Origin: a bacterium
GTDB lineage: Bacteria > UBP18 > UBA7526
Length of the DNA: 64,000 nucleotides
Direction of reading: 5' to 3'
Assembly: GCA_030615855.1 (NCBI GenBank)
Contig: JAUWYL010000003.1
Location: 2,384-66,383 of the forward strand
Position numbers and translations under genes: made by a program. Below the pieces are notes generated by a model. It made no database searches, was not told the DNA's origin, and worked only from the letters and a program-made list of their open reading frames with translations. This document shows, piece after piece, positions 20,074 through 41,246 of this stretch (its first letter is position 1; each line of letters begins with the position of its first letter).

Positions 20074-20102
20074 GCTATGCTCCCGTAGTTTCTAAATTAG
20101 AC

Positions 20103-23396: not shown

Positions 23397-23531
23397 CGTG
23401 TCCCTTTGTCACTCGGTTAGGGTTAAGGTTAGGTTGTTAGTTTGGTCGTTGGGTTAGGTTGTTAGTCTTTTTAAACACCTAACCCTCACCAAACTACCAT
23501 ACCCACTACTTTACCCTAACCCAACTACTAA
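23397..23531. repeat. palindromic element of ggttaggttgttag ... ctaaccc k-mers
   Basis: Left arm ggttagggttaaggttaggttgttag. Right arm cctaaccctcacc...ccctaacccaactactaa. Confidence 0.6.
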
Positions 23532-26360
23532 TCACTTCAGTATTTCCTTCGCGGCCCAAACCACGGGTTTGAAATAGAACCTTACCATCTTCTTCAAGGC
23601 TTCTTTGTTCCTTATAAAGTTAGCAACTGGTGGGCTAATTCTGTTATAGAAGGAAATGAAGGCTCTGCCTGCTCTATTGGGCAAAAGATATCTATCCCTG
23701 AATTCACAGAGAATTTTCTCTTCCTCTGCCATCGGTGTTCCATAGGCGGCAGTAGCGATGAGGCAGCCGCCTCCGCCACCTCCTCCGCCTCCGCCTCCGG
23801 CAGGGGCGGCGATGGTGGTGAATTGATAGTAGGAACCACCATTATTATCTGTGGTCTGGTTCTCAACTGTGTCGCTTGAGGTAACCTGATAGTAGTATAG
23901 GGTCGAGGAACTTAAATTAGAGAGGGTAACGGAGTGAGAAGTGGTCTGGGTGGGATCCTGAGTAGTGGAACCAGGGGGAGTGGTAGTTCCATGCTTCACG
24001 ATACTATCACTCGCTTCATCTGTGGTCCAGGTGATGGTGCAGGTAGTGGAACCAGGAGAGGCGCTGACATTAGTTATTACGGGGTCCTGAGCATCTATGG
24101 TAGCGGTGTCGGTTCTCTCTCCAGGAGGGCTGGCATCAGTATAGGTAGCGGTTATGGTATCTCCGTGGGCTACCTGTAATTCTCCGGTACCCGGAGCCTC
24201 CGTAGTCAGGGTTACTGAGCCTTTGAAGCAATTTGTAGTCCCTCCCGTCTCTTCTAGGATTATGGTCTCCGAATCACCAGTAAGAAAACTGGTCATAACT
24301 ACTTCATCAGTGGTAAAACCAATGTCTGGGGTAGTATCTAAATTAGAATCCCAGAGGGTGATGTTTACTTTGGCAGAACCATTATAAACCCCGGCATCTA
24401 AATTGATTAAACCAGTAGGAACAGGTATATGGAAAGGGGTCTCGGGGTCACCGAAGAGGTTGAGAGCAAAGTAGCACCACCTTATCGCTCCTGTGCTGTC
24501 TACAGATCCATCGTTATCTTCTTTTGAATCTTGGTTAATCCTGCCCAGATTGGTTATTCCCTCATCGAATAAAGCATCCCAGAACTGGCGGTCGAACCTC
24601 TGAGAGGCTCCATTGGTGCTTCCCTGGACATACCAGCCATACCTTGAATTCCCCACAAAGGCGAAGGCACCATTGGCTTCGGTGGTGAAGTGTTCCAGGA
24701 TAGAGTCATAATTATAATAATAACTACTGCTGGTACTACGATTGTCGAAGGCTCCGCAGTAACAGCCCTGGGTATAGCCAAAGAAGTAATCGGTATTGGT
24801 CAAGGCATCGACATCCGCGTTGTACATCTTCATATCATAGTTTACATTAGCATGGCCCAGATGGTTTATAACGTGAAGGCCATTATTGATATATCCGGTG
24901 AGGGTGCTCTTCGACCAAAAAGCATCGTAATCATAGAGGGTATTGAGATCGCTGAAGAAGGAACAGTCAGTGAAGCCTTTGGTGGTATAGTAATTAATGG
25001 AGCCAGTTCGAACCTCTTCTTTATAATCCCTTCCCCAGGTTGGGTAACTATCCAGTTTTTCAGCGACCATATAAGCGGTGTGGAGATAATCAGTAGTAGC
25101 ATCCTCATAGGCCAAGGTCTTCTTGACGAAGTTGGAGAGTTCTGTAGTAGAATCAACGGGCGCTCTTCCCACATAGACCTCAGCGTAGAGGTCGATTTCT
25201 CCCCCGTCTACGCCATCGTTCGATTCCCCATATATTCCATCAGCATCGTTGTCAAACGTTCCATCGAGACAGGCATAGTACATATCGGCCGGAATATCGT
25301 TGTCTGCTGGTGTAGGAGGAGAACTTGACACATAGCCATAGAATCCACGATGGGGAATGATGGGTTCTGCCTCCCTCTCGCCATCGGCACTGCCACCTCC
25401 GTCACCGTCCCCAACCAAGAGGATATAATCGGTAGCCCAACCACCTTCAACCACAGGTTTATTGGCATCGAAGATGAAGTTTCGAATCTTGGTCTGATTG
25501 TCCGTTCCTCCATCAGGACGGGTTCCGCTATAGTTGGCATATATCCATTCTGTGGTTACGATATTGGTAGTGATTCCGCGATTGTTCTTACTCTGAGTTA
25601 AATCCTGGAGATCATAGGTTCCGGAGTAGTTCTTGAAAGTATCATTGGTAATGATGACATAATCGTAGGGACCTCCTGACAAGAGAGGGCCACCGTCTAA
25701 GGCGGTCTTAATGGCCCGGGAGTAGCTCTTTGTATCTTGAGGATTATTTACTATCTTCCCGATTACTCTTTCATCCTTGGCTAAACCACGGTATAAGGGA
25801 GGAGCAGTTATTTCGCGGACGGGAATAGTCTCTACCTCAATGGTCATATTTTTATAATAGGAGAGCCTTTTCTCTTGAGGGATATATTCCATAGGATGGA
25901 GGTTGACGGGTAGGATGCGATAACCCCTCTTATTCTGTACGGACTTTGGAGTGTGGAGTTTGCCCGGGAAAGGATTCCTGGATTGATATATTCTCTTATC
26001 CGGTAGAGTCTTAGATACTTTCCCTCTATAACTCAAGGGCACCGGCCTCTGTCCCGGTTCGACGTTATAGGTGCCGGAGAGTTCTATCTTCTGTGCAGGA
26101 ATAATATTTATTCCCTTGACCTTTTGGCCAAAGGGGATGAGGACTTTAACTGTCTTTATGGGAAGGACGGGCTCTCCAGGCTCGCCTATAGTGGATGAGC
26201 CCTTCATACTTATCCTGTGGTATTCACCAACCCTGTTAATCTGGGGAGAGGGGAAGGTTATTTCTATTCTGATGGAATTATTCCTTGCCTGCAAATAATA
26301 AGTTCCACTACTTAGAAGTAGCAGACTGATAATTATTACTAGGATGTTAACTATTTTCAC
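23532..26360 (-). CDS. C25 (gingipain-like) cysteine peptidase with propeptide-like N-domain, FN3/Ig-like domains and CFIATAAY-type C-terminal sorting domain
   Basis: Signal peptide. Candidate catalytic pair in HVINHLGHANV and YTQGCYCGAFD (His-Gly ... Gln-x-Cys). FN3-like segment. G11 linker followed by CLIATAAYG...FRDRYLL...SPPVANFIRNKEALK. Confidence 0.6.
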   Translation of the reverse strand: MKIVNILVIIISLLLLSSGTYYLQARNNSIRIEITFPSPQINRVGEYHRISMKGSSTIGEPGEPVLPIKTVKVLIPFGQKVKGINIIPAQKIELSGTYNVEPGQRPVPLSYRGKVSKTLPDKRIYQSRNPFPGKLHTPKSVQNKRGYRILPVNLHPMEYIPQEKRLSYYKNMTIEVETIPVREITAPPLYRGLAKDERVIGKIVNNPQDTKSYSRAIKTALDGGPLLSGGPYDYVIITNDTFKNYSGTYDLQDLTQSKNNRGITTNIVTTEWIYANYSGTRPDGGTDNQTKIRNFIFDANKPVVEGGWATDYILLVGDGDGGGSADGEREAEPIIPHRGFYGYVSSSPPTPADNDIPADMYYACLDGTFDNDADGIYGESNDGVDGGEIDLYAEVYVGRAPVDSTTELSNFVKKTLAYEDATTDYLHTAYMVAEKLDSYPTWGRDYKEEVRTGSINYYTTKGFTDCSFFSDLNTLYDYDAFWSKSTLTGYINNGLHVINHLGHANVNYDMKMYNADVDALTNTDYFFGYTQGCYCGAFDNRSTSSSYYYNYDSILEHFTTEANGAFAFVGNSRYGWYVQGSTNGASQRFDRQFWDALFDEGITNLGRINQDSKEDNDGSVDSTGAIRWCYFALNLFGDPETPFHIPVPTGLINLDAGVYNGSAKVNITLWDSNLDTTPDIGFTTDEVVMTSFLTGDSETIILEETGGTTNCFKGSVTLTTEAPGTGELQVAHGDTITATYTDASPPGERTDTATIDAQDPVITNVSASPGSTTCTITWTTDEASDSIVKHGTTTPPGSTTQDPTQTTSHSVTLSNLSSSTLYYYQVTSSDTVENQTTDNNGGSYYQFTTIAAPAGGGGGGGGGGGCLIATAAYGTPMAEEEKILCEFRDRYLLPNRAGRAFISFYNRISPPVANFIRNKEALKKMVRFYFKPVVWAAKEILK

Positions 26361-26364
26361 CTTG

Positions 26365-27033
26365 TTACTTCTCCTTTACTGGATAGGTCGCGATGGCCTG
26401 TGGGTTTTCCACCATCTTCTTAATCCTTTCTCTATCCTCTGGTTTTCCTCTAAATAACGTCGGCTTTGAAGCAGAAATTGTGGTTACCTCTATCTTTATG
26501 CTCTCATAATAAGAAAGTTCTCTTTTTCCCGGAATATATTTTACAGGATGAAGATTGAGAAGAAGTATTTTATATCCTCTCATACTCTGGATTGACTTAT
26601 TAGAATATAACCTGCCCGGAAAGGGATGATTAGAACTATAGATTTTATCTTTGAGAAAAGGAAGGGGCACTTTCCCTCGATATCTTAAGGGAACTGGTCT
26701 TTGACCGGGTTCTACCAGATATTTTCCCTTTAAAATCCTTTCCTTTTTAGAAGATACCTTTATTCTCTTCACTTCCTGGCCAAAGGGAATTAGTATCTTG
26801 ATCGTCTTTACTGGTAATACTGGTTCTCCCGGCTGGCCAAGACTGGGCATCCCTTTTATAGTCACCCGGTGATATTCCCTGACCTCAGTAATCGTGGGGG
26901 AGGGGAAGTCTATCTCGATTCTAATACCATGGTTTCTGATTAATAAAGAATGAAGACCACTTCCCAGAAATATTATACTGACCATGGCTACTATACCGAT
27001 TTTCCTCATCTCAAACTCCCCCCTTTCCCTCAC
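26365..27033 (-). CDS. stand-alone paralogue of the peptidase propeptide-like N-domain
   Basis: 222 aa with signal peptide. Aligns along its whole length with residues ~20-200 of the 942-aa peptidase (e.g. IRIEIDFPSPTITEVREYHRVTIKG vs IRIEITFPSPQINRVGEYHRISMKG; EPGQRPVPLRYRGKV vs EPGQRPVPLSYRGKV). Confidence 0.5.
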   Translation of the reverse strand: MRERGEFEMRKIGIVAMVSIIFLGSGLHSLLIRNHGIRIEIDFPSPTITEVREYHRVTIKGMPSLGQPGEPVLPVKTIKILIPFGQEVKRIKVSSKKERILKGKYLVEPGQRPVPLRYRGKVPLPFLKDKIYSSNHPFPGRLYSNKSIQSMRGYKILLLNLHPVKYIPGKRELSYYESIKIEVTTISASKPTLFRGKPEDRERIKKMVENPQAIATYPVKEK

Positions 27034-27038
27034 TCATG

Positions 27039-27953
27039 TTACATTACTCTCCAGTATTTTATCTCTAAACTTTTGCCTTGCCTCTCTAAGATGGTCTTTA
27101 TTCTCTTCCTCGTCTCTCCCAAGGCCCCTTGAGAAAAGATAGAGAAGGAGTTGCTCTTCACAGTAATGAGAGGGCTAATCTTATTATAGAGTCTATCAAC
27201 TATTCCGAAGACTTCCTTTAGGTCTGTAATCTTCTCAAAAGGGCGATCCTCCCGATATTTTACAATCTCTTGGGCCAAACCCTCATCAATATCAGAATGG
27301 AGGGCCTGAAGAACAATGGAAGGGGCGGTATTGATATTCACCTTACCATCCCCATAGACCGTAAGATAGGAATCCAGGGAGCCTCTTTCCTTTTCTTTTC
27401 CATAGAAGACTTCGTCATTGAAATCTTTTAGGAGGAAGAGTTCATCTATTGTGTTCAGAGGGCCGTTCTTACAAGGGTAGGGGTTTTCCAGATTAGAGTA
27501 ATAATCATCCTCTGTCCCAAAATCCCTCACTTCATCATCCTCATCAAGCCAGTCGCAGATTATATCGACAAGCTCCTTATCGATCTCAAGGACCTCAAAT
27601 AGCCTCTCTAACATTACCTTCTTTTTCTTATCAACCTTACCTTCCTTACCCAAAAGGGAGTTGATATTTATCTTACCACACTCATCTATAATGTGAAAAG
27701 TTATCGCTCCTTCCTCCATAGCAACCGGTGGCTTGGCTAAAGCCCAATCCTCATCCAAGGAGTCACAACTTAAGTCATCATCATCCCTTAAGAGGAGATA
27801 GGCAAAGTTAATCCCAGAATTCGCCAGATAATAAGATTTGAGGCTATCCCGATAATTTCCCGAGATCTCTGCCTCCACTCTCATGAGATAGTTAAACTCC
27901 AAGACCAAAACCGCTAAGATTGTAATAACCACCAGGGTGAGAACTAAGGCCAT
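27039..27953 (-). CDS. gspK: type II secretion minor pseudopilin GspK
   Basis: Prepilin-like TM segment MALVLTLVVITILAVLVLEFNYL, then a GspK-like periplasmic domain. Start placed at Met30 of the tracked ORF, downstream of the caccgattc tandem repeat. Confidence 0.65.
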   Translation of the reverse strand: MALVLTLVVITILAVLVLEFNYLMRVEAEISGNYRDSLKSYYLANSGINFAYLLLRDDDDLSCDSLDEDWALAKPPVAMEEGAITFHIIDECGKININSLLGKEGKVDKKKKVMLERLFEVLEIDKELVDIICDWLDEDDEVRDFGTEDDYYSNLENPYPCKNGPLNTIDELFLLKDFNDEVFYGKEKERGSLDSYLTVYGDGKVNINTAPSIVLQALHSDIDEGLAQEIVKYREDRPFEKITDLKEVFGIVDRLYNKISPLITVKSNSFSIFSQGALGETRKRIKTILERQGKSLEIKYWRVM

Positions 27954-27969
27954 CCCTCTTTGAGAATTA

Positions 27970-28003
27970 ATCGGTGAATCGGGGAATCGGTGAATCGGTG
28001 ATT
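27970..28003. repeat. tandem repeat (unit ~9 bp, atcggtgaa / caccgattc) in the gspJ-gspK spacer
   Basis: atcggtgaatcggggaatcggtgaatcggtgatt read directly. Confidence 0.7.
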
Positions 28004-28054
28004 TTCCCCGTTTCTCCCTTTCTCCCTGTCTCCGTTTCATAACCCACTCTCACT

Positions 28055-28690
28055 TCATTCTTTTACTGTCTCACTCTTTCCTAAGGGGATAAAAGCCACA
28101 GTGGAAAGCTCCTTTTCTGAGAATTTCAAGGTAACCTTAACCGCCTGGGGCAGGCAGGATTCTTCTTTGCTATCCCACTCATCACGCCATTCTTCCCCAT
28201 CATAATACTTAAACTCCAAACCCTCTAAGCCTTCTATTAGATTCTCTTTCTCTCCTCCCTCAAGAACATCATCATCCGGCGTTCCATCCTCCCTGCGCCA
28301 TAGAGAAAGGTTCTTCCCCTCTTCCTCCGGTTCTGTGAAGTAGCCGATCTCTACCAGATCATACTCCTTGCTATCTTTAAATATTCGCTCATGAGAAGAG
28401 GAGATAAAGTCTATCTTTCCTTCCTCTCCGGCAAACATCACATCCTCACTATCTTCTGAAAAGAAAGAAGAGGTAATTTCATCATTCATCCTGCTTAAGG
28501 TGAGTCTTACCATAGAGAAGGCATCCATCTTTTTCCGGGTATAATTCATAGTATCGATGCTTGAGGCATAGGAAGCGTAGATAATGGTGAGGATGAGGCT
28601 AACGATGGCCACGGCAATTAATATCTCAACCAAAGTGAAACCATTGCGGGTGAGCCGGTGAGAAAGTGAGAAAGTGAGCTTTTTACTCAT
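28055..28690 (-). CDS. gspJ: type II secretion minor pseudopilin GspJ
   Basis: Prepilin N-terminus ...RNGFTLVEILIAVAIVSLILTIIYASY (G/FTLxE cleavage and methylation motif). Probable start at MSKK. Confidence 0.65.
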   Translation of the reverse strand: MSKKLTFSLSHRLTRNGFTLVEILIAVAIVSLILTIIYASYASSIDTMNYTRKKMDAFSMVRLTLSRMNDEITSSFFSEDSEDVMFAGEEGKIDFISSSHERIFKDSKEYDLVEIGYFTEPEEEGKNLSLWRREDGTPDDDVLEGGEKENLIEGLEGLEFKYYDGEEWRDEWDSKEESCLPQAVKVTLKFSEKELSTVAFIPLGKSETVKE

Positions 28691-28734
28691 TTTTACACAC
28701 CTGCCTACTTTCACACCTGCCTGCTTTCTCCATT

Positions 28735-29097
28735 TTATTCACGTTTGGCAAGATAAGTAACTACTTCAAGGTTCTTCTCATCCCAGGAGATGGTCAAGGT
28801 CACCTTCCTCAAATCTTCCATAGGAGTCTCGGCCACTCTTTCTCTCCAAGTAAAACCAGGGTACTCCTCTCCAAAGTCCCCTTCTTCTCCTCCTACCTCA
28901 GGGAATCCCTCTAATTCTATCTCAGCCATCTTTCCCTGAGCAAGCAAGGTAGCTAAGGAAAAGTCCTGGGACTCGTTAGCCATACTTATTCCCAGACCAT
29001 AGGAATGGAGGATAACTACTAAAGCAATAGCGATAATGGCTATCGCGATCATCACCTCAATCAGGGTGAAGCCTTTCTTCTTCCACATATCCTTCAT
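28735..29097 (-). CDS. gspI: type II secretion minor pseudopilin GspI
   Basis: MKDMWKKKGFTLIEVMIAIAIIAIALVVIL prepilin leader and N-terminal helix. 120 aa. Confidence 0.7.
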   Translation of the reverse strand: MKDMWKKKGFTLIEVMIAIAIIAIALVVILHSYGLGISMANESQDFSLATLLAQGKMAEIELEGFPEVGGEEGDFGEEYPGFTWRERVAETPMEDLRKVTLTISWDEKNLEVVTYLAKRE

Positions 29098-29575
29098 AGA
29101 CCATAACCTGGCCCATGGTCCCCTTGACTAATAGGGTCTGGACCTCTTCCTTTTCATTCTGAAGATGGATGATGGATTTGGTAACATAGCCTTTGGGAAA
29201 AAAGAGGGTAAAGGCCTGACCATTATTTATCTTTCCCTCTGGAGTGACGACATCCAGGAATTTGATCCCTTCCGGAAGGGCCTCCCTCCTTCCCAAGACG
29301 GTCTTCAACTCCTCGAACTCTCCCTCCTCATTCTCCTCTTCTATCCAGTACTCATTCTCATCTAAGTTATAACAGAGACGCAAGCGTTTTCCTGTAGTTG
29401 CTGAGCGATCGTGAAGATAGCGGATAGTCCCTATCAGTCGCCGGCTTGTGCTCTTCAGATAACCTCCGGATAAGAAAGCCTCCATCCTGGGAAAGGCAAT
29501 GACCAAAACAGCACTCAAAACAATGAGAACGATGATTAACTCTATTAAAGTGAAGCCACAAGCTCCAAGCCTCAA
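29057..29575 (-). CDS. gspH: type II secretion minor pseudopilin GspH
   Basis: Prepilin N-terminus ...LRLGACGFTLIELIIVLIVLSAVLV. Most plausible start is the TTG at 29575, giving leader MRLGACG. The tracked ORF runs further upstream through the cctgtagc tandem repeat and into gspG. Confidence 0.55.
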   Translation of the reverse strand: MRLGACGFTLIELIIVLIVLSAVLVIAFPRMEAFLSGGYLKSTSRRLIGTIRYLHDRSATTGKRLRLCYNLDENEYWIEEENEEGEFEELKTVLGRREALPEGIKFLDVVTPEGKINNGQAFTLFFPKGYVTKSIIHLQNEKEEVQTLLVKGTMGQVMVYEGYVEEERLHPD

Positions 29576-29590
29576 GCCACAAGCTTCTTT

Positions 29591-29638
29591 GTAGCCTGGA
29601 GCCTGGAGCCTGTAACCTGTAGCCTGTAGCCTGTAGCC
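29591..29638. repeat. tandem 8-bp repeat (cctgtagc / cctggagc variants, ~6 copies) between gspG and gspH
   Basis: gtagcctggagcctggagcctgtaacctgtagcctgtagcctgtagcc read directly. Confidence 0.75.
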
Positions 29639-29639
29639 T

Positions 29640-30080
29640 TTACTTCTCCAGTGCCCAGCTCTGGATATCGGCATCATTCCCTTCCCCGCCTTCGGCTCCA
29701 TCTGCACCATAGGAGACAATATCATACTCCTTATTGTGCACCCCAGGTGAGATATAGACATAGGGGTTCCCCCAGGGATCGAAGGGAATCTCTTTGGCCT
29801 CTAAGTAGCCCCCCTCCTTCCAGTTCTTCGTCTCTCTTCCTGTAGTGGGCTTCTCAACCAGGGCCTTCAAGCTCTGCTCTGTTGAAGGATAGAAACCATT
29901 ATCTAACTTAAAGAGCTTCAGAGCTCCCTCAAAGTTCTTGATCTGAATGATGGTTGCCGTCCTCTTTGCCTGCTCCTCCCGGCCCATGAATTTAGGCACT
30001 ACAATGGTGGCCAGGATAGCCAGGATGACGATGACGATCATCAATTCAATCAGAGTAAAACCTCTTTCATTTTTTCTCAT
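29640..30080 (-). CDS. gspG: type II secretion major pseudopilin GspG
   Basis: MRKNERGFTLIELMIVIVILAILATIVVPKF, followed by the conserved GspG globular domain. 146 aa. Confidence 0.85.
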   Translation of the reverse strand: MRKNERGFTLIELMIVIVILAILATIVVPKFMGREEQAKRTATIIQIKNFEGALKLFKLDNGFYPSTEQSLKALVEKPTTGRETKNWKEGGYLEAKEIPFDPWGNPYVYISPGVHNKEYDIVSYGADGAEGGEGNDADIQSWALEK

Positions 30081-30229
30081 AAGAACCCTCCTATAATTAA
30101 TTTGTTAGTTTGCTGGTTATTTGATACCTTATCAACTTATTAACTTATTAACTTATTAACTTGTTAACTAACCAATTATCCAACTATTTTACTAATCTAC
30201 CTAATTTACTTAGCCGACTTTGTCGGCTA

Positions 30230-31441
30230 TTAGCGGATGGCTTGGCTCATTTCAAAGATAGGTAATAGAATGGCTAAGACGATAAATCCCACCACAAGTC
30301 CCATTAAGAGTATAAGAATGGGTTCCAAGAGAGCAGTCAGGGTACCAACCGTGGCCTCCACCTCGCTATCATAGGTATCCGCTGCCTTATAGAGTAAATC
30401 CTCTAAGTTCCCGCTCTTCTCTCCAGAGGCGATCATTCTGACCACGATGGGAGGGAAGACCTTATTCCTGGATAAGGGAGCAGCCAGGCTCTCCCCCCTC
30501 CTCACGCTCTCCCCCGCCTCTCCAATGGCTTCTGAGAGAACCCGATTGCCCACGATATTCTTGACAATCTCTAAGGAACTCAAGAGGGGAACCCCGCCAG
30601 CCAGAAGGGTAGCTAAGGTGCGTGAGAACCTGGCCAGGGCGATCCCCTGGTTCAGAGGTCCAAAGAGAGGAACTCTTAGCCTCAGTCGATCGAAGATTTT
30701 CCCTCCTCCTTCTGTTTTGATATATCTCTTCATCCCAAAGATAAAGACAATGACTATTAGTAAGAGAAGCCACCAGTAGCCTTTGAAGAAGTCGCCTAAT
30801 TTAATCAGGATGATGGTGGGGAGGGGAAGAGAGGCCTGAAAAGTGGTAAATAGGCTAGTCACCCGAGGAATGACGAAGGTAAAGAGAAAGGATAGAACCA
30901 GGATGCCGATGGCCACAATGAAGAGGGGGTAGGCTAAAGCAGCCCTTATTCTATTCTCTAAGCGTAGGTGCTTCTCATTATAATCTGCCAAGCGTTCCAG
31001 AACAAGTTCTAATGCTCCGGCACTTTCACCGGCTCTAATCATACTGACATAGAGGCCAGAAAAGACCTTAGGATATTGGCTAAGGGCACTAGAGAGGGTG
31101 GAACCTGACTTTACCCTTTCGCGAACATCAACCAGGGCCTTCTTCAAAGTCTGATTCTCTAACTGCTCGCTCACCCCAGAGAGGGCCTCAGTGAGGGGAA
31201 GGCCGGCACTCAATAAAGTGGCCAGCTGCCGAGTAAGAATGGCTAAATCTCTTATCCTTACCCTCTTAAATATCCTTATCTCTCGTGAGGGAATAAGGGA
31301 GGGAAGAGATTCCTTTAAGGAGGTGAGATGTAAACCTTCTTGATGGAGCTTAGCCCGGGCTTCGGCAGGACTATCGGCATCGATGATTCCCCTCTTCCTC
31401 TTTCCCGACTTATCAAGGGCCTGATACTCAAAGACTGCCAT
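30230..31441 (-). CDS. gspF: type II secretion / type IV pilus platform protein GspF
   Basis: 403 aa. Two GspF/PilC repeats, each with cytoplasmic domain plus TM helices (e.g. GLPLTEALSGVSEQLEN, GGVPLLSSLEIVKNIVGNRV). Confidence 0.85.
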   Translation of the reverse strand: MAVFEYQALDKSGKRKRGIIDADSPAEARAKLHQEGLHLTSLKESLPSLIPSREIRIFKRVRIRDLAILTRQLATLLSAGLPLTEALSGVSEQLENQTLKKALVDVRERVKSGSTLSSALSQYPKVFSGLYVSMIRAGESAGALELVLERLADYNEKHLRLENRIRAALAYPLFIVAIGILVLSFLFTFVIPRVTSLFTTFQASLPLPTIILIKLGDFFKGYWWLLLLIVIVFIFGMKRYIKTEGGGKIFDRLRLRVPLFGPLNQGIALARFSRTLATLLAGGVPLLSSLEIVKNIVGNRVLSEAIGEAGESVRRGESLAAPLSRNKVFPPIVVRMIASGEKSGNLEDLLYKAADTYDSEVEATVGTLTALLEPILILLMGLVVGFIVLAILLPIFEMSQAIR

Positions 31442-31467
31442 CTCTCCCTCGCTGTCGCTCGGAGTAA
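31435..31467. repeat. 33-bp direct repeat, copy B (ctgccatctctccctcgctgtcgctcggagtaa), spanning the gspF start codon and leader
   Basis: Identical 33-mer also at 32952..32984. Together they bracket the HEPN/MNT cassette. Confidence 0.85.
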
Positions 31468-31487
31468 GATAGTATCAAAGTAGGAAA

Positions 31488-31606
31488 GTAATGGTTGGGA
31501 ATGGGTAGTAAGTAGTGAGTCGGGTAGTGAGTAGTGCGGGTGGGGTAAAGAGACCTCACAACTCACCCCCACAACTCGACTCACAACCCATAACTCACCC
31601 TCATCC
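31488..31606. repeat. ~120-bp imperfect palindromic element (ggtagtgagtagtg ... cacaactcgactcacaacccataactcaccctca family)
   Basis: Arms are reverse complements of each other. A second copy lies at 40621..40735. Confidence 0.65.
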
Positions 31607-31645
31607 TTTGCTGTTACTCTTCTTCTCTTCTTCTTTCCTACTCTC

Positions 31646-32065
31646 CTACCTTTTGGGTTGAGGTAGCATAGATTTTACCCAAGCGAAAAAGCGCTCAGTA
31701 TGCTTAATTATCTCTATTGCTTCTTTCTGGGTAAATAACCGCTCTTCATATTCTATGAGATTTTTCTTAGCGATGACCTTCCGCAGATGTTGAGCATTTC
31801 TCCTGGCATCAGGGGTTTTTATTGATTCGATTAATAAGCGTACTGCTTCTCTATGATCTGGGCTGGTACTTCTCACCTTGCGATAAAAAGTAAGCAGGGC
31901 ATCGTTAGCAGATATAACGCAGTGTACTGCTTCCAACCCTGCTGAATTCCAGTTGCCTTTTTCATAAGCCAATCTCATAGCCCGATGGAAATCCCGAGAT
32001 TTCCTAAAGTAATTTAGATACTCGCCAGGTTCAATCTTTTTGAATTTAGTCTTCTTAGCTATCAA
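31646..32065 (-). CDS. HEPN-domain protein (HepT-like toxin candidate)
   Basis: 139 aa, all-helical. R-x4-6-H motif in RRNAQHLRK. Overlaps the upstream nucleotidyltransferase gene by 11 bp. Confidence 0.6.
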   Translation of the reverse strand: MIAKKTKFKKIEPGEYLNYFRKSRDFHRAMRLAYEKGNWNSAGLEAVHCVISANDALLTFYRKVRSTSPDHREAVRLLIESIKTPDARRNAQHLRKVIAKKNLIEYEERLFTQKEAIEIIKHTERFFAWVKSMLPQPKR

Positions 32066-32678
32066 TTGTTAGCACCTCAGTTAAACTTTTTCCTTGAATT
32101 ACTTTTCCCTCTTTAATAATTCTCCCTATTAGCCTCTCTTTTGCCTTTTGCTTTTTAGTAAATTCCCTAAGGGTTAAGATATATGGGGAAACTACATTTC
32201 CAAAGGTATCCATTAATTCCATATTCAGGGAGTCGAATTTTCGCTCTACCTTCTTCTTTTCTTTCTGGCGGGAAACCAGTACTAAAAGGTCGATGTCGCT
32301 ATCGGAACTTTCTCTACCTTGAGCAAAACTTCCAAAAAGTATTACGGAGACTACTGTTCTATTAAAGGATTTAGTTATTTTCTTTAATGCTGTCTGAAGC
32401 AAGCCTGCCTCTTTTTTAAATAAAGGTTGGAGCACATGAGAGACTAAATAATTTGTTTCTTTTAAACCGAATAAATGAGCCTTACCTACCTTCTGTCTAG
32501 TGACTATTCCTTCGTTTATCAATTCTCTTAATGCCAAATGGCAGGTTCTATGGTTCAGTCCGCTGAGTTGGGCTATTTGACGACCGGTTATTTCTATTTT
32601 ACTTTTAAATAATACACGCAATATTTTAATCTTAGATCTCTGTCCCAATACCTCTTCCAAGACATTGTGCATACGCAT
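32055..32678 (-). CDS. minimal nucleotidyltransferase (MntA-like antitoxin candidate) with N-terminal winged-HTH
   Basis: wHTH segment GRQIAQLSGLNHRTCHLALRELINEGIV. Pol-beta-type motif ILFGSFAQGRESSDSDIDLLVL. Confidence 0.65.
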   Translation of the reverse strand: MRMHNVLEEVLGQRSKIKILRVLFKSKIEITGRQIAQLSGLNHRTCHLALRELINEGIVTRQKVGKAHLFGLKETNYLVSHVLQPLFKKEAGLLQTALKKITKSFNRTVVSVILFGSFAQGRESSDSDIDLLVLVSRQKEKKKVERKFDSLNMELMDTFGNVVSPYILTLREFTKKQKAKERLIGRIIKEGKVIQGKSLTEVLTIDS

Positions 32679-32733
32679 ACAACGGCCTCACTTTCTGGAT
32701 AATTTTATTACCTATATGGCTAATTTATTAACC

Positions 32734-32762
32734 AATATATCATAGGATTATTTGATTGTCAA
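32734..32762 (-). promoter_or_regulatory. sigma70-type promoter (TTGACA-17 bp-TATATT) for the MNT/HEPN cassette
   Basis: Minus strand: -35 TTGACA = complement of 32757..32762; 17-bp spacer; -10 TATATT = complement of 32734..32739. About 55 nt upstream of the MNT start, in an AT-rich segment. Confidence 0.6.
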
Positions 32763-32869
32763 CCCCCTTAGACTTTTTAAAAATTTATTGTCAATTCATA
32801 AGATTCAGTAAACTAAAAAATTTCTGATCGAAAGTCTAATGGGATCAAGCGATTGGTCAGTAAGCACAA

Positions 32870-32898
32870 ATTACAACTCAAATCGAAACTTTTGTCAA
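32870..32898 (-). promoter_or_regulatory. second sigma70-like promoter (TTGACA-17 bp-TGTAAT) overlapping duplicated tcgaaacttttg motifs
   Basis: Minus strand: -35 = complement of 32893..32898; -10 = complement of 32870..32875. The motif gtcgaaacttttg occurs twice (32884-32896 and 32914-32926), a possible operator. Confidence 0.45.
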
Positions 32899-32951
32899 GT
32901 AATTTCAATTGCAGTCGAAACTTTTGAGACTAAAGACACAGGATTAAAAAC

Positions 32952-32984
32952 CTGCCATCTCTCCCTCGCTGTCGCTCGGAGTAA
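32952..32984. repeat. 33-bp direct repeat, copy A (duplicate of the gspF start/leader, including ATGGCAG)
   Basis: Identical to 31435..31467. Here the duplicated start codon is followed by non-coding AT-rich sequence. Confidence 0.85.
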
Positions 32985-33245
32985 CCAGTAACCAGTGTAC
33001 AGTTTACAGCAAAAGAATATCAGATTACCAGTATATCAGATGGAGAGGGATAGATATCAGAAATCAGATAAATCTGATACTCTGACCATCTGAATTCTCA
33101 TTCTGAGACTCTGATGTTCTGCATTCTGAGCATCGCGAAGAATCTAGCCAGTTTATCTGGCGTCTAATCTATAGTTTTACTGGTTACTGTTTGCTGGTTA
33201 CTGTAAACCTCTATTCTACTATTCACTGATAGTAAGTATACCATA
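32985..33245. repeat. MITE-like palindromic element with gtaaccagtaaccag ... ctggttactgtaaacctctattctact termini
   Basis: Shares both end sequences with the element at 6690..6806. The interior carries gatatcag / tctgat and cgaagaatctagccag motifs, also seen at 61141-61260 and 63181-63310. Confidence 0.55.
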
Positions 33246-33332
33246 CTCCTCTTAAAAAAGCAAAAAAGCCACTACATTCATGTGACATAGTGGCTCTTAC
33301 TTACTTTCCTACTTTTTTACTTTTATACTCTT

Positions 33333-35120
33333 TTAGACTACTATTTCCTGGGTGACGCGCAGGACTTCTTCTAAGGTGGTGATTCCAGATAAGATCTTCT
33401 CCACCCCTGCCTGCTGTAAGGTGGTCATCCCTTTGGAGACGGCCTTCTGCTTTATAAGGTTGGTCTCTTTCTTATTGGTAATCATATCCCTTATCTCATC
33501 ATCTATTACTAATAGTTCGAAGATCCCGGTCCTTCCCCAATATCCAGTATCGAGACAAAAAGGACAACCCTTTCCTCTCCAGAGAACTCCCTCCGGGCCA
33601 GAGGCCCTCTGAGCCGGCGGCCCTTCCCTCCGGGGCAGAGCCCCCTCTCTCCGAGCCAGAGGCTCTTCCGAGCCGGAGGCTGGGGCGGAGCCTTTAAGGT
33701 CAGAAGGTTTCAATCCCACCTCTGCTAAGGACTCTGGCGTTGGAGTATAGGACTCCTTGCATTTTGGGCAGATGAGGCGAACTAATCTCTGGGCCATGAT
33801 CCCGATTATTGAAGAAGAGGCAAGATAGGGCTCCACCCCCATCTCGAGTAGTCTGGTAATGGCTCCGGCAGCATCATTGGTATGGAGAGTAGAGAAGACC
33901 AAGTGGCCGGTTAAAGCAGCGTGGATGGCAATCTCTGCGGTCTCGAAGTCTCGGATCTCACCCACCATCATAACATCCGGGTCCTGCCTCACAATAGACC
34001 TTAATCCAGAAGCAAAGGTTAAACCGATCTTGGGCTTTACCTGTATCTGTCCGATCCCCTCTAACTGATACTCAATGGGATCCTCCACAGTAATGATGTT
34101 TTTGTCCGGGGTATTAATGCGGTCTAAAGCACTATACAGAGTGGTCGTCTTACCTGACCCTGTTGGCCCAGTATTCAGTATGATACCATGGGAACTTTTG
34201 ATTAATTTGAGGAGCTTTTCCAGGTTCTTTTGAGAGAAGCCTAAGTTCTCCAATCTGAAGGACATACTCGACTTATCCAATAACCTCATCACTACCCTCT
34301 CCCCAAAGAAGGTGGGAATTACTGAGACTCGGATATCAATGTCCTTTCCCGCCATCTTGATACTTATTCTTCCATCCTGGGGAAGCCTTCTCTCAGCAAT
34401 ATTTAAGCTGGCCATTACTTTTACCCGAGAGACGATGGCCGGTTGATGACTACGCTCATTACGCAGAATATCATATAGCACGCCATCTACTCTATATCGT
34501 ATCCTCAGTTCCTTCTCAAAGGGCTCGATGTGGATATCACTGGCCCTCTTCTTTAAGGCCTCAATAATGAGGGAGTCAACGAACTTAATAATGGGTGGTT
34601 TGGAAGCCAAGTCCAATAAATCCTCTGCCCCTTCAAATGTTCCTTCCCCTTTTCCAAAATCAACCTTCTCAAACTCCTTTATGATTTCAGTGGCGCTCTC
34701 TCCCTCCTGGGCACCATAACCCCTTTCAATCCCTTTGAGAATCTCCTCTTCCGGAACGATGACCATCCTTAGAGGATGGGTCAGGATAAGGCGGAGATTA
34801 TCAATGGGACCAGGGTCCAAAGGATCAGAGGTAGCCACCCTCTCTCCTTTCAGGGGAAGAAGGCAACACCTCTTGAGGAAAGAATGGGAGAGTTCAGAGA
34901 GTCCCTCAGAATCGATATCCTCATCTGAGAGATGGTCCAAGTAGGGGACATGAAGTTTTTCACTCAAGACCCGCAGAATCTCTTCCTGAGTAAGAAACTT
35001 TAGTTGTAAGAGAACCTTATCTAATCTCTCATTGGTCCTTCCCTGTAAGTCTAAAGCCTCTTTTAATTCTTCCTTAGTTATCTTCTTATCCTTCAGGAGG
35101 ATCTCACCCAGATTCTCCAT
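33333..35120 (-). CDS. gspE: type II secretion / type IV pilus assembly ATPase GspE
   Basis: N1 domain, Walker A GPTGSGKTT, Asp and His boxes. C-terminal Cys pairs CPKC ... CPFC are separated by an in-frame low-complexity Gly/Pro/Arg insertion encoded by GC-rich tandem ccggagg/gagccgg repeats (~33590-33700). Confidence 0.85.
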   Translation of the reverse strand: MENLGEILLKDKKITKEELKEALDLQGRTNERLDKVLLQLKFLTQEEILRVLSEKLHVPYLDHLSDEDIDSEGLSELSHSFLKRCCLLPLKGERVATSDPLDPGPIDNLRLILTHPLRMVIVPEEEILKGIERGYGAQEGESATEIIKEFEKVDFGKGEGTFEGAEDLLDLASKPPIIKFVDSLIIEALKKRASDIHIEPFEKELRIRYRVDGVLYDILRNERSHQPAIVSRVKVMASLNIAERRLPQDGRISIKMAGKDIDIRVSVIPTFFGERVVMRLLDKSSMSFRLENLGFSQKNLEKLLKLIKSSHGIILNTGPTGSGKTTTLYSALDRINTPDKNIITVEDPIEYQLEGIGQIQVKPKIGLTFASGLRSIVRQDPDVMMVGEIRDFETAEIAIHAALTGHLVFSTLHTNDAAGAITRLLEMGVEPYLASSSIIGIMAQRLVRLICPKCKESYTPTPESLAEVGLKPSDLKGSAPASGSEEPLARREGALPRREGPPAQRASGPEGVLWRGKGCPFCLDTGYWGRTGIFELLVIDDEIRDMITNKKETNLIKQKAVSKGMTTLQQAGVEKILSGITTLEEVLRVTQEIVV

Positions 35121-35122
35121 AA

Positions 35123-37054
35123 TTACTTCCTCTCAAACTCCTCTATCTCTTCCCTCTTTCTCTCAGTCAGGGCTTCGACCTCCTCTGGAGTAGTAACCAC
35201 ATGAGGGGTGAGAAAGATGACCAAGCTTATCTTCTCTGTGACCTCTATCTTTCTCTTGAAGAGCCAGCCCAATCCCGGAATCCTTCCCAGTCCGGGGACC
35301 CTTCTCTCCACAACAGATTTATCTTCTCTCAGTAGGCCCCCAATAACAATGGTCTGGCCATCCCTGACCGTCACTGTGGTATCTGTCTCCCTCTTGGCTA
35401 AAACCGGAGCATCGTGTATCGTCTCTGCTAATACTTTCTGAATCTCCTGATGAATCTTTAAGGTAACAAATCCCTCAGGATTTATCTGGGGGGTGATCTT
35501 CAAGTTTATTCCCACATCCTCATAGGTATAGGTCTTTACCACCGTCTCATCTTCCGTTAGCCGAGAGGCAGTAACCATGGGGACCCTCTTCCCCACCTTG
35601 ATCTCCGCCTCCTGATTATTATTCACCAAGAGATAGGGGGTAGATAGGATATTGAATTCAGAATCAGTCTTATAGAGGTTAACCAGGGCAGCGATATTGG
35701 CTGGCTCATTCTTATATAATCCCAGGGTCATGCCATACAACGTCCCAGCCAAGTACTCTGGTCTCATCCCAAAGTGAGTCACCGCGAGGGGCCGATGGGC
35801 ATGGTCGAGCCGAAATTCTTCTAATGCTGCCCATTCCACTCCTAAGTTCAGGAACTTCTCTAAAGTGACCTCTGCTACCAGAGCCTCCACTAAGACCTGT
35901 TGGCGGGGGATGTCTAGTTTCTCAATAATCTTCTCTAATTCTTCATACTGAGTGGGAGCAGCAATGATGATGAGGGCATTGGTCAATTTATCAGCCACGA
36001 TAGTAGGCTTGGCCTCTATGGCCAGGGCCTTCCCCTTTCCCACTCTGCGAGCAACCATCTTGGCATACATCTCGGTCAAAACCTTGGCTAAGTCCTCAGC
36101 AGTCGAGTTCTTGAGATAGTAGACGTGGATCATCTCCTTCCCTGGAGGAGGCTTCTTATCGATCTCTTCCACAATGGTCATCATTCTCCTTATATTAGAG
36201 GAGACATCTGTAATGATGACCGTATTGGCAGGGGGATAGGTAATGAGATTTCCTCCCGGAGAGATTAAAGGGGTCAAGAGGCTTCGTACCTGATCGCAGG
36301 CAGCATACTCTAAGGGGATGAGCTGGGTGATAATCTTATCCTCTGGGCTTATCCTTTCAACCTCTCTTCCCACTCTGGTCTCAATGCTCTTCCCTTTCGC
36401 TTCCCTTGAGGGAATGACCTTTATCACCTCTCCCGCCGGAACCGTGGTATAGCCCTTCACCTCTAAGATAGACTCTAAGACGTGATATACCTCTTCTAAG
36501 GGAATCTTGGTGGGGGAGATGATGGTTACCTTCCCCCTCACCTTCTCATCGATGACGAAGTTCTTTCCGGTCAATTCGCTTATTGCTTTAATCACTACCT
36601 TAATATCAGCATCCTTGAAATCTAAGGAGACGAGATTCCGGGGTAAGGGTTTCTTAGTAACTTTCTTCTCCTTTGGTGAGATTCTCAAGGAGAGTCTATC
36701 TTTCTGGCTGGTTGCTTTATACTCTGCTGGTTTTTTCAGGTCTATGACCACCCGACTGATACTCTTCGGTCTATCCTTATACTGGGCAGACCTTATGCTC
36801 TTCACCAATGGATGATCGACTACCAATTCTCTCTTAGGCCAGGCATGGATGGTATTGGAAAGGTCTACTACCATACGATTCGGTTTGGTAAGGAGAAAGA
36901 TATTATAATCATGGGGAGAAGGGAGGGTAATATTGACCATTGCCTCCTCTCCCTTGGGTAGAAAAGTTATTTTCGTTAATTTACCTACCGCCCCAGAAAG
37001 GCTACTTCCCAATAGCAGGAAAATTAAAGACGAAATTATTATTCTTGTTTTCAT
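35123..37054 (-). CDS. gspD: type II secretion secretin GspD
   Basis: 643 aa. Signal peptide, N0/N1 periplasmic domains, C-terminal secretin domain (...TVVIGGLLREDKSVVERRVPGLGRIPGLGWLFK). Confidence 0.85.
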   Translation of the reverse strand: MKTRIIISSLIFLLLGSSLSGAVGKLTKITFLPKGEEAMVNITLPSPHDYNIFLLTKPNRMVVDLSNTIHAWPKRELVVDHPLVKSIRSAQYKDRPKSISRVVIDLKKPAEYKATSQKDRLSLRISPKEKKVTKKPLPRNLVSLDFKDADIKVVIKAISELTGKNFVIDEKVRGKVTIISPTKIPLEEVYHVLESILEVKGYTTVPAGEVIKVIPSREAKGKSIETRVGREVERISPEDKIITQLIPLEYAACDQVRSLLTPLISPGGNLITYPPANTVIITDVSSNIRRMMTIVEEIDKKPPPGKEMIHVYYLKNSTAEDLAKVLTEMYAKMVARRVGKGKALAIEAKPTIVADKLTNALIIIAAPTQYEELEKIIEKLDIPRQQVLVEALVAEVTLEKFLNLGVEWAALEEFRLDHAHRPLAVTHFGMRPEYLAGTLYGMTLGLYKNEPANIAALVNLYKTDSEFNILSTPYLLVNNNQEAEIKVGKRVPMVTASRLTEDETVVKTYTYEDVGINLKITPQINPEGFVTLKIHQEIQKVLAETIHDAPVLAKRETDTTVTVRDGQTIVIGGLLREDKSVVERRVPGLGRIPGLGWLFKRKIEVTEKISLVIFLTPHVVTTPEEVEALTERKREEIEEFERK

Positions 37055-37244
37055 TCTATCTCCTTGCCACCGCCGAATTACAAAACAAGTTGGATTAGTG
37101 TATTAGGTAGACTTTTAGGATATTAGTTGGATTAGTGTATTAGGTGGATTAGGTGAAAGTTAATTCAACTAGTCCAACTCATCCAACTAATTTACCAGTC
37201 TAACTATCCTTTTCTGCGTCTTTGCTTCTTCAGCGCTTCTGCGT

Positions 37245-38087
37245 TTAATCTTTTATCTCATAGGTCAAAGTGATGGGACGACCGCCCCTCTCTACTTCCA
37301 CACTGATGATCGGTCTATCCTTCACCTCTTTATACATCTGAATAGCCCTCTCAATACTGTCCAGCCTCTGGCCCTCAACCCCTTTGATGATATCTCCATC
37401 CCTCACGCCCAAGCTCTCAGCCAAGCTCCCCTTCTTGACATCATCTAACCTGAAGCCTCTTATCTGACCAGCCTCTAAGTAAGGTGCAACCTTCACCTGG
37501 GCAAGGAGCTGGTTGGGGTTACTGATCACTGAGGTGAATTTACTTCTGGAAAACGACCATCTATTGCTGGCCACCTTTTCCACCAAACGGGAAGTATCAG
37601 AAGTCATACCAGGAAGAAAGTTCTCACCATAAACTGCCAGGGAGACCAGACCGGCTGAGGTCTTCAAGACAACATGGTCTCTCTCAATCTTGACTATCTC
37701 ATTTTCCCCTACCAAGTCCCCTTTCTTGTAGACTTCCTCCTTCTTAGTATCAGGATCCTCAATGATGCATAGGGATTCCAGGCCCTCTACGACAATGGTC
37801 CCCTTCAGTTTTAGATTCGATACTATACCAGGTAGGGTTTCCAATAGCCCTTCTTCAAGTGAGACCCCTTCTTCCCCAGCAGCAAAGAGATTTCTTTCTA
37901 TAATAATAGAATAATGTTCATAGAGCCTGGGTTCCTCTTTCACTTCCTCTTTTCCTGGAGGAAGCGGAGGAGGCTTAGGAACCGCTACCTTTCCCACGCG
38001 GGCAAAGGAAAGGGAGATATCAATAATAATGGTAAGTGCGATAACGATGAGAACTACATTCAGGATCAGAAAATATTTCTTCAGCAT
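37245..38087 (-). CDS. gspC: GspC-like inner-membrane protein with C-terminal PDZ domain
   Basis: N-terminal TM helix. PDZ segment GFRLDDVKKGSLAESLGVRDGDIIKGVEGQRLDSIERAIQMY. Lies directly upstream of gspD. Confidence 0.6.
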   Translation of the reverse strand: MLKKYFLILNVVLIVIALTIIIDISLSFARVGKVAVPKPPPLPPGKEEVKEEPRLYEHYSIIIERNLFAAGEEGVSLEEGLLETLPGIVSNLKLKGTIVVEGLESLCIIEDPDTKKEEVYKKGDLVGENEIVKIERDHVVLKTSAGLVSLAVYGENFLPGMTSDTSRLVEKVASNRWSFSRSKFTSVISNPNQLLAQVKVAPYLEAGQIRGFRLDDVKKGSLAESLGVRDGDIIKGVEGQRLDSIERAIQMYKEVKDRPIISVEVERGGRPITLTYEIKD

Positions 38088-38106
38088 CTTTTCCTCTCTT
38101 CAAATC

Positions 38107-38417
38107 TGGCTCCGGAGGAGGGATTCGAACCCCCGACCAAGTGGTTACAGATTCTCTCCAAATTTCTTTAGAGTCTGGACTCTCTCTTTCCCGTGTCCCA
38201 TCTGGCTCTGCCAGACAGGATTTAGGGAGCGGGTGTATAGTCTCTGCACGTTCCCTCCGAAGCTTTAGCCTAGGAGGGCTTCGCTCAGGATTACCTTACC
38301 CGCCGATGAGACGGGGTTAGGCTTCCCTGAATTAGCCCGCTTTTTCAATCCGACTTTCGACGGAAAGCTGCAACTTTCTGGTTACAGCCACCTGCGCTAC
38401 CACTGCGCTACTCCGGA
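38107..38417 (-). tRNA. tRNA gene split in the anticodon loop by a 229-nt insertion flanked by an 8-bp direct repeat. The joined exons give a class-I tRNA with anticodon GUA (Tyr by the universal code).
   Basis: 5' part TCCGGAGTAGCGCAGTGGTAGCGCAGGTGGCTGTAACC (38380..38417) and 3' part CTGTAACCACTTGGTCGGGGGTTCGAATCCCTCCTCCGGAGCCA (38107..38150) together form perfect acceptor, D, anticodon (GGTGG/CCACT) and T stems, with encoded CCA. ctgtaacc occurs at both junctions. Confidence 0.5.
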
Positions 38418-38466
38418 GCATCCTTAAATAACATTATACCAAGCAATATCTTATTTGTCAAATATC

Positions 38467-40591: not shown

Positions 40592-40620
40592 TTACGTTAA
40601 TCGGTTACGGTTACTTGTAT

Positions 40621-40735: not shown

Positions 40736-40751
40736 TTTAACCGGATAGCCT

Positions 40752-41207: not shown

Positions 41208-41246
41208 ATTACCCTACTTATATTCGCGACAATTCGTGTCTTGGCG

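Follow-up and report, generated by a model that had tools for sequence, protein, structure and literature searches.

Evidence for an Asn.4Ug group I intron splitting a tRNA-Asn(GUU) gene in a bacterium of the lineage UBP18

Results

An interrupted tRNA gene behind a consensus promoter

We analyzed a 64-kb stretch of DNA from a bacterium of the lineage UBP18 (UBA7526), comprising positions 2,384 to 66,383 of contig JAUWYL010000003.1 in assembly GCA_030615855.1 (hereafter, the window; all positions refer to its 64,000 nucleotides, nt), and focus on an interrupted tRNA gene that occupies 38107-38417 of the minus strand and ends in an encoded CCA (38109-38107). Read along the minus strand, the region 38080-38460 contains a consensus promoter and then the 5' half (TCCGGAGTAGCGCAGTGGTAGCGCAGGTGGCTGT) and the 3' half (TAACCACTTGGTCGGGGGTTCGAATCCCTCCTCCGGAGCCA) of a tRNA, with ~236 nt of other sequence between them. 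We consider it very likely that this is a tRNA-Asn(GUU) gene split between U35 and U36 by a 236-nt self-splicing group I intron of the class Asn.4Ug, devoid of any open reading frame (ORF). The 5' exon carries the 5' strand of the acceptor stem, the D arm, the 5' strand of the anticodon stem, and the loop nucleotides C32, U33, G34, and U35; the 3' exon resumes with U36, A37, and A38, followed by the 3' strand of the anticodon stem, a 5-nt variable loop, the T arm, the 3' strand of the acceptor stem, G73, and CCA. The promoter-like site lies ~16 nt ahead of tRNA position 1, and its agreement with the sigma-70 consensus suggests that it would function as a promoter; its -35 block, TTGACAAAT, is common to the window and to the promoters of three intron-less alleles described below.

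Across the 64 kb, ARAGORN in its default mode reports only a tRNA-Gln elsewhere, and Rfam at gathering thresholds finds the tRNA-Gln again, together with one full-length group I intron and nothing else; neither finds another tRNA-Asn within the window. The insert contains no ORF, its longest stop-free stretch being 56 codons, and no second copy of the intron is present in the window. Nothing was found when the feature was read on the plus strand; the 85-amino-acid ORF there (37914-38171), which shares sequence with the 3' exon and the last part of the intron, was taken as spurious.

Splice junctions and tRNA identity

The junctions follow from the pairing between the exon and the intron's internal guide. 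In the Rfam alignment of the first helix, P1, GGCUGUAAC is paired with GUUGCAGCU, and the conserved splice-site U of the model coincides with the U at 38384 (U35), standing opposite a G in a U.G wobble. The intron so delimited, 38383..38148, is preceded by a U and has a G (38148) as its last base. Around the two copies of a repeat that spans the junctions, we built 144 joins (12 x 12) and ran each through ARAGORN; the program is permissive and called many artificial isotypes, and the junction was chosen by the P1 U.G pair, the terminal G (omega-G), and a 7-nt loop. The join defined by U-1 and omega-G gives the loop CUGUUAA and, in ARAGORN, a 75-nt tRNA-Asn(gtt) with four regular stems, a 5-nt variable loop, discriminator G73, and the encoded CCA; the ligated exons are predicted to read ...GGCUGUUAACCAC.... 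As the junction is dictated by P1 and omega-G, the anticodon is GUU, and there is no anomalous class-I tRNA-Tyr; the features of a bacterial tRNA-Tyr(GUA) are replaced here by the anticodon GUU, a variable loop of 5 nt, and a discriminator G.

A preliminary description of the locus, made by eye, had both ends of the gene and the encoded CCA exactly right, to which we add that the strand is minus. It correctly saw an anticodon loop split by an insert of roughly 230 nt, and its boundaries, giving 229 nt instead of 236 nt, were a few bases off. The textbook class-I cloverleaf that it described survives as an intron-interrupted class-I tRNA, but not through the join that it used, which removes 237 nt, leaves a 6-nt loop, and is reported by ARAGORN as 'tRNA-?(Thr|Tyr)(gt)'. 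Its anticodon GUA in a loop CUGUAAC is superseded by GUU in CUGUUAA at the canonical junction, and the supposedly atypical tRNA-Tyr with a short variable arm, being a tRNA-Asn, presents no anomaly. The description also held that the insert lacks both a terminal G and a preceding U; in fact, both are there, the U at 38384 closing the 5' exon and the G at 38148 closing the intron. These errors arose because the junction repeat makes the boundary ambiguous by eye.

A group I ribozyme fold supported by covariation

The Rfam group I model (Intron_gpI, RF00028) matches 38393..38156 on the minus strand with 81.9 bits (gathering threshold 50; E=2.8e-19) over model positions 1-253, and an nhmmer profile of 77 homologous introns, made with the window intron left out, matches 38388-38144 with E=1.9e-35. 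The insert shows the hallmarks of group I: a P3-P9 core with P7, an exon-guide P1 with a U.G wobble, and a terminal omega-G after a 3-bp P9.0. Rfam gives no group II match in the window at the gathering threshold, and the insert is only 236 nt long and free of ORFs; a tmRNA is found neither by ARAGORN nor by Rfam at the gathering threshold. Of the possibilities weighed in the preliminary description, the rejection of a tmRNA is thus upheld, and the suggestion of a non-canonical self-splicing or processed intron was half right, the element being a group I intron but a canonical one, with its U-1 wobble, omega-G, and P3-P9 core at 81.9 bits. The Rfam search that the description had proposed returned the group I intron with no group II or tmRNA match at the gathering threshold, and the proposed search for further copies of the insert, carried out within the 64-kb window, found the single copy.

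The minimum free energy (MFE) fold of the intron with the adjoining exon tail and exon head has -97.7 kcal/mol (z=-5.0), and none of 200 shuffled sequences folds as well. Unaided, it recovers P1, P2, P3, P4-P5-P5a, the P6 arm, P8, P9, and P9.0, the 3-bp P6 stem being placed one register off from the homology-based assignment. The comparative evidence comes from a structure-blind MAFFT alignment of 78 sequences, consisting of 77 introns of at most 262 nt and the window intron. For the helices of the window intron, 79.3% of the cells in the alignment are paired vs. 62.0% in shuffles, a level that none of 500 shuffles reaches, and the covariation score is 0.358, compared with 0.134 for shuffles and no more than 0.141 when the register is slid by one to three columns. 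Compensatory changes are abundant in P2, P3, P4, P6, P9.0, and P9: in P2, 96% of the cells are paired and all five counted pairs show such changes, as do all 10 pairs of P9.0 and P9 together. Invariant throughout are the G, C, and G of the guide GCAGC as well as AGAGACTA, AGTCC, and G-TAA; the A and the final C of the guide are conserved in at least 90% of the 78 sequences. In P7, the helix that binds guanosine, five of six pairs are invariant across the alignment. P1 was judged apart, the window row being out of register there (7 exon nt vs. 6); it has six exon-guide pairs, three extension pairs, and a 6-nt loop, with the U35.G wobble at the splice site. The pairings of P1 are thus directly visible, and the fold is backed by covariation; the coordinates of the helices are given in Table 1.

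Table 1. Positions of the gene parts, intron helices, and junction repeats in the window
Feature	Positions	Strand	Basis or remark
Promoter-like site, TTGACA-17 nt-TATAAT, TG before -10	38433..38461	-	12/12 consensus matches
5' exon, tRNA-Asn positions 1-35	38384..38417	-	last base is the splice-site U (38384)
Group I intron, 236 nt, ORF-less, omega-G 38148	38148..38383	-	Rfam RF00028 and nhmmer profile
3' exon	38107..38147	-	ARAGORN on the spliced product
P1, exon GGCUGU and intron AAC (38389-38381) with guide GUUGCAGCU (38374-38366)	38366..38389	-	Rfam
P2 hairpin, UCCGUC / GUCGGA, GAAA loop, one U.U mismatch	38349..38364	-	covariation
P3 (38340-36 / 38233-29), enclosing the P4-P6 arms	38228..38341	-	83% paired
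P4 (38330-25 / 38290-85); P5 and P5a (38322-38293)	within P3	-	P4/P5 86-100% paired
P6, P6a, P6b	38284-38248	-	P6 84% paired
P7 pseudoknot, G[A]GACUA (38244-38238) with (G)AGUCC (38182-38177)	38177..38244	-	guanosine-binding helix
P8 and P8a, enclosed by P7	38228-38189	-	helix coordinates
P9.0, AGA (38176-74) / UCU (38151-49)	within 38149..38176	-	~84% paired
P9 hairpin, GAAA loop	38173-38156	-	~84% paired; directly before omega-G
Repeat copy 1, CTGTAACCA	38379..38387	-	loop nt 32-35 and first 5 intron nt
Repeat copy 2, CTGTAACCA	38142..38150	-	last 3 intron nt incl. omega-G and tRNA positions 36-41

Intron-less alleles and the junction repeat

Uninterrupted tRNA-Asn(GUU) genes were found on three metagenome contigs (L121, 1145-1219, minus strand; L122, 4608-4682, minus strand; L123, 1382-1456, plus strand). 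The contigs were retrieved through the 38 nt of the window's 3' exon that precede CCA (38147-38110), and those 38 nt are identical in them. Over the whole mature tRNA, the three genes agree with the spliced product of the window at 74 of 75 positions, the single difference being a D-loop base, in AGUGG in the window vs. AGCGG in the alleles; they score 69.4 bits on the Rfam tRNA model, give no intron match, and coincide exactly with the predicted ligation product at the junction, with anticodon GUU. The intron is, in other words, polymorphic in presence and absence between close relatives. In an independent Logan assembly of run SRR14872660, the first base of contig L001 is precisely that of exon 2 (window position 38147), which fits a branch of the assembly graph between intron-containing and intron-less contexts, as expected if the sample also holds a sequence with exon 2 but without the intron.

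The direct repeat at the two junctions is 9 nt long (CTGTAACCA); the 8-bp repeat noted in the preliminary description, the word CTGTAACC at 38387..38380 and 38150..38143, is indeed present at both junctions and is contained in it. The description took this word for a target-site duplication. The empty site in the intron-less alleles reads GGCTGT/TAACCAC (slash, splice site) and lacks CTGTAACC, and the repeat cannot therefore be a target-site duplication; a repeat across both junctions is, moreover, missing in 84 of the 104 split homologues among the matches listed (see below), and the longest found in them is 6 nt. It is a peculiarity of the window copy and not the signature of an element, and the absence of terminal inverted repeats from the insert, which the description had also noted, is borne out. 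Part of the repeat may have a structural origin: the AAC that opens the intron lengthens P1 by pairing with the GUU of the guide, and this GUU could also form P10 with the AAC at A37, A38, and C39 of the 3' exon. Such a pairing would explain three of the six repeat matches that are not fixed by tRNA-Asn identity and the rules of group I introns, and the remaining three to four would seem to be within chance, given the ~105 loci inspected.

Split homologues in bacteria and phages

We scanned species-representative genomes for a pattern made of the core words AGAGACYR and AGTCC, the G/TAA junction, and the T-loop spacing of a class-I tRNA; its chance expectation in the window is 0.00. The scan matched at least 119 loci, and in 104 of 119, a tRNA-Asn(GUU) split as ...CUGU, intron...G, and UAA... 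could be rebuilt, the CUGU and the terminal G of these 104 relatives being required by the search pattern and the reconstruction. At least 104 further species thus have the same split, chiefly among Patescibacteria, Omnitrophota, and Planctomycetes. Among the matches listed, the closest introns are from metagenome-assembled genomes (MAGs) of Planctomycetia and Omnitrophota, with identity of 0.77-0.80, and the closest relatives (L023, L101, and L111) score 83-86 bits on the Rfam group I model.

In 21 of the 104 split homologues (~20%) among the matches listed, the intron is 423-576 nt long, with an extra stretch of up to ~300 nt. Nearly all of these long introns have the GCAGC guide 316-364 nt past the splice site vs. 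the usual ~13 nt, which places the extra sequence in the loop of P1. Ten of the insertions were translated and yield a protein of ~100-115 amino acids with an invariant CxxC...HH...CxxCH motif and weak profile matches to the HNH domain of a group II maturase (6me0, E=0.0034), to McrA (E=0.0065), and to Pfam HNH (~5e-3); as judged from these resemblances, the product is probably an HNH homing endonuclease. Loci with long introns include L003, L007, L017, L022, L024, L036, L059, L061, L098, L105, and L114.

The pattern also matched 24 viral contigs of IMG/VR (L124-L147), some of them >200 kb. The viral loci have split tRNA-Asn(GUU) and tRNA-Lys(UUU) genes inside tRNA arrays. One 10-kb locus holds as many as 25 further tRNAs, and L132 and L140 reach the maximum of three intron copies per locus; examples are L125 (3941-4116), L132 (3610-4980), and L136 (3764-3940). 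On the Rfam group I model, L125 alone among the viral loci tested scores (36.4 bits, below gathering), and L136, L124, and L130 have no match at E<=1e-3; a profile made from the cellular Asn introns matches every viral locus, with E from 1e-28 down to ~1e-5.

The survey gave some by-products, which leave the classification of the window locus unchanged. Split tRNA-Asn genes occur in bins labeled Pacearchaeota, Woesearchaeota, or Nanoarchaeota (L005, L009, L036, L059, and L091); L036 has an acceptor stem starting with GCC, unlike the bacterial TCC, and not all such bins need therefore be mis-binned bacterial contigs. In MAGs of Alphaproteobacteria/Rhodobacterales and in phage contigs, the pattern also picks out tRNA-Lys(UUU) genes in the Lys.4Ug setting, with the split following CUUU (L034, L083, L131-L133, L137, L140, L144, and L145). 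In the phage tRNA array of L136, an Rfam match to YrlA (Y RNA-like) lies at 3122-3264 on the plus strand, with 49.6 bits, below its gathering threshold of 69.

Neighboring genes

The CCA end of the tRNA (38107) is 19 nt upstream of the start codon of gspC (38087), and no terminator-like site was found between the two; the tRNA promoter may also drive the type II secretion operon. This operon is complete and spans 38087..20854 on the minus strand, with gspC, D, and E, a nucleotidyltransferase gene, gspF, pseudopilin genes, gspK, two C25-peptidase-related genes, gspL, and gspM. The GspC protein occurs on a single Logan contig, from run SRR14872660, and gives a delta-type GspC match that lies below the cutoff and is a weak taxonomic clue. 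On the contigs with intron-less alleles, sequence homologous to the window from 20860 downwards (16198-20860; 84-97% identity) directly adjoins the tRNA 3' end, and the operon fills exactly the 17.2 kb between the 3' end of tRNA-Asn and the point where synteny resumes (20860); the upstream flanks of the three contigs resemble neither that of the window nor one another. The far end of the operon showed neither an integrase nor a repeat of a tRNA fragment, and the difference may reflect either an insertion in the window lineage or a deletion in the relatives.

Between gspE and gspF, two small genes occupy 31646-32678 on the minus strand, one for a winged-helix and Pol-beta-type nucleotidyltransferase and the other an adjacent ORF of 139 amino acids; they could be a toxin-antitoxin-like pair. 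Upstream of the tRNA, three consecutive genes (38696-42656, minus strand) encode proteins with ComEA-type helix-hairpin-helix repeats, one of which has five repeats and a LysM-like match.

Discussion

Taken as a self-splicing intron, the element suggests the following course of events. Transcription would start from the consensus sigma-70 promoter (38461-38433), and the intron would fold into its P3-P9 core, with the guide GCAGCU and the exon GGCUGU forming P1 and U35 sitting in the U.G wobble. As is established for group I introns in general, an external guanosine occupying P7 would attack the bond following U35; omega-G, placed by P9.0, would then take over the guanosine site, and the 3'-OH of U35 would attack the bond that precedes U36. 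The anticodon stem GGUGG/CCACU probably keeps the exons together, perhaps with help from a short P10 between the exon AAC and the guide GUU; alignment of the exons by the anticodon stem has been reported for an Anabaena pre-tRNA, according to a later paper that cites the work (Zaug et al. 1993, cited in PMC3984707). Exon ligation would restore the CUGUUAA loop, and cleavage by RNase P and trimming of the 3' end would be expected to release a 75-nt tRNA-Asn with its encoded CCA, a product whose sequence we have assembled in silico.

Several observations weigh against this account. Splicing and expression of the window gene are predicted from its sequence, and a second, intron-less copy of tRNA-Asn may possibly exist elsewhere in the genome. 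Given that L001 breaks exactly at the 3' splice site, selection for splicing need not act on the window copy. P10 is weak and requires U36 to be skipped. Within the intron, the outermost P7 pair is A.G, in contrast to A-U in 76 of 78 sequences, and P2 contains a U.U mismatch; either of these could lower the activity. Finally, the intron can be called IC3-like on its architecture only.

The same irregularities provide the material for the best of the alternative explanations, one that we nevertheless regard as very improbable: the locus would be a decaying pseudogene whose group I intron, formerly functional, has ceased to splice, and the cell would rely on another, intron-less tRNA-Asn. Besides the A.G pair distal in P7 and the U.U in P2, the start of L001 at exon 2 fits a second sequence with exon 2 in the same sample, and intron-less alleles are known in relatives. 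Against such decay, every core helix and every invariant core position is intact, and the Rfam score is on par with those of the relatives (81.9 vs. 83-86 bits); one D-loop base is all that separates the exons from the intron-less alleles, the promoter matches the consensus at 12 of 12 positions, and the window holds no other tRNA-Asn.

The preliminary description offered two further explanations, to which we attach next to no credence. In the first, a novel small non-autonomous insertion element would have duplicated an 8-bp target, CTGTAACC, and inactivated the tRNA. The flanking repeat is real, 9 nt in length and longer than in any of the 104 relatives among the matches listed, but the idea is refuted by the empty site, CTGT/TAACC, which lacks the repeat word; furthermore, removing the insert with one copy of the repeat leaves a defective 6-nt loop, the insert, a full-length group I ribozyme, has neither terminal inverted repeats nor a transposase and occurs once in the window, and 84 of the 104 homologous inserts among the matches listed have no junction repeat. 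The second, a class-I tRNA-Tyr(GUA) with a non-canonical intron, is scarcely credible either: a genuine Tyr.4Ug class with a CUGU/A... junction exists (Williams 2020) and ARAGORN calls Tyr for some artificial joins, but every join with GUA comes at the cost of either an intron whose last base is other than G or a loop of other than 7 nt, G73 and the 5-nt variable loop are as in the 104 tRNA-Asn homologues, and the intron-less alleles read GUU.

How the intron came to be in this gene is a separate question. Having no endonuclease gene, it is probably immobile and probably derives from relatives whose P1 loop holds an ORF for an HNH-type endonuclease. A bolder proposal, based on the near-identical (74/75) intron-less alleles, the relatives with HNH ORFs, and the split tRNA-Asn and tRNA-Lys genes in phage arrays, is that the intron was not inherited but gained recently here and that phage tRNA arrays have served as vehicles that seed the class into cellular G34-U35 tRNA genes across phyla. 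We consider this unlikely; were it true, the 9-nt repeat would be a footprint of the acquisition, left for example by reverse splicing or by recombination guided by CUGU/GCAG, and not a product of chance.

The group-I-split bacterial tRNA genes of the class Asn.4Ug have been described (Williams 2020, bioRxiv 10.1101/2020.01.27.920355), with Pam37.Asn.4Ug as the seed member; the window intron belongs to this class, and the arrangement has thus been catalogued already. The scientific weight of the locus is accordingly small, and its practical value lies in annotation. The gene was missed by the default mode of ARAGORN and by the Rfam tRNA model, and tRNAscan-SE is, by its authors' account, not designed to detect such introns (PMC8450103), so that genes like the one in the window are missed and the genome would appear to lack tRNA-Asn. 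The 2009 paper on tRNADB-CE mentions only the tRNA-Leu introns of Burkholderia, and apart from Williams 2020, our search for literature on group I introns of tRNA-Asn returned only mitochondrial cases or unrelated papers. Research on intron mobility may profit from the survey, with its at least 104 species that share the split and belong for the most part to uncultured lineages, its HNH-bearing variants and phage-borne copies, and the presence/absence polymorphism between near-identical tRNA-Asn genes.

Comparison with known introns

The window intron shows the defining features of Asn.4Ug: the ligated product is tRNA-Asn(GUU), and the intron follows nucleotide 4 of the anticodon loop, with U-1 and omega-G. 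It agrees with Pam37.Asn.4Ug in the isoacceptor, the site between U35 and U36, U-1, omega-G, and the GCAG of the guide that pairs with CUGU. The seed member is larger, however, at 273 nt, with a longer P2 region and an additional hairpin domain located between P7 and P3', whereas the window intron lacks these, has an extended P8, and with its 236 nt is ~0.67 identical to it.

A wider resemblance is to the classical IC3 introns in the tRNA-Ile(CAU) of Azoarcus and the tRNA-Leu(UAA) of cyanobacteria and plastids, which are likewise compact, ORF-less, ~200-250 nt long, and located in the anticodon loop. The order of helices, P1-P2-P3-P4-P5-P6-P7-P8-P9.0-P9 with no P5abc and no P7.1/7.2, is the same, as are the core motifs AAUUC.GGGAA and AGAGACUA...AGUCC; the host tRNA and the site differ, the intron following loop nucleotide 3 in tRNA-Leu and nucleotide 5 in Ile2 and Arg. 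Although the architecture is compatible with IC3, with P2 present and P2.1, P5abc, and P7.1/7.2 absent, the global identity to the classical IC3 introns, 0.61-0.66, is not above that to other seeds, and the range over all published seed introns (0.61-0.69) does not separate the subgroups. Self-splicing of the classical IC3 tRNA introns is experimentally established (references in PMC3984707); in the Asn.4Ug class it is predicted.

Closer in their targeting are the classes Tyr.4Ug (Mba143) and Asp.4Ug (Wba81), which are also found in the seed alignment of Williams 2020 (bioRxiv 10.1101/2020.01.27.920355) and share with the window intron the junction after CUGU and its pairing with a GCAG guide. 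The Asn, Asp, and Tyr tRNAs all have G34-U35, and one guide sequence can therefore address all three loops. The resemblance to Wba81.Asp.4Ug extends to the J2/3-P3-J3/4 segment, where its UUGAAAAACUAGGCUAAUUCGGGGAA is closely similar to the UUGAAAAAGCGGGCUAAUUCAGGGAA of the window; unlike in Tyr.4Ug and Asp.4Ug, the 3' exon of the window begins with UAA, giving the anticodon GUU. The endonuclease-bearing Asn.4Ug introns (e.g., L061, L114, L022, and L036), lastly, have the tRNA, the site, and the ribozyme core in common with the window intron, and the difference lies in the loop of P1: where they hold a ~300-nt insertion with an ORF, the window intron has a loop of 6 nt and no ORF.

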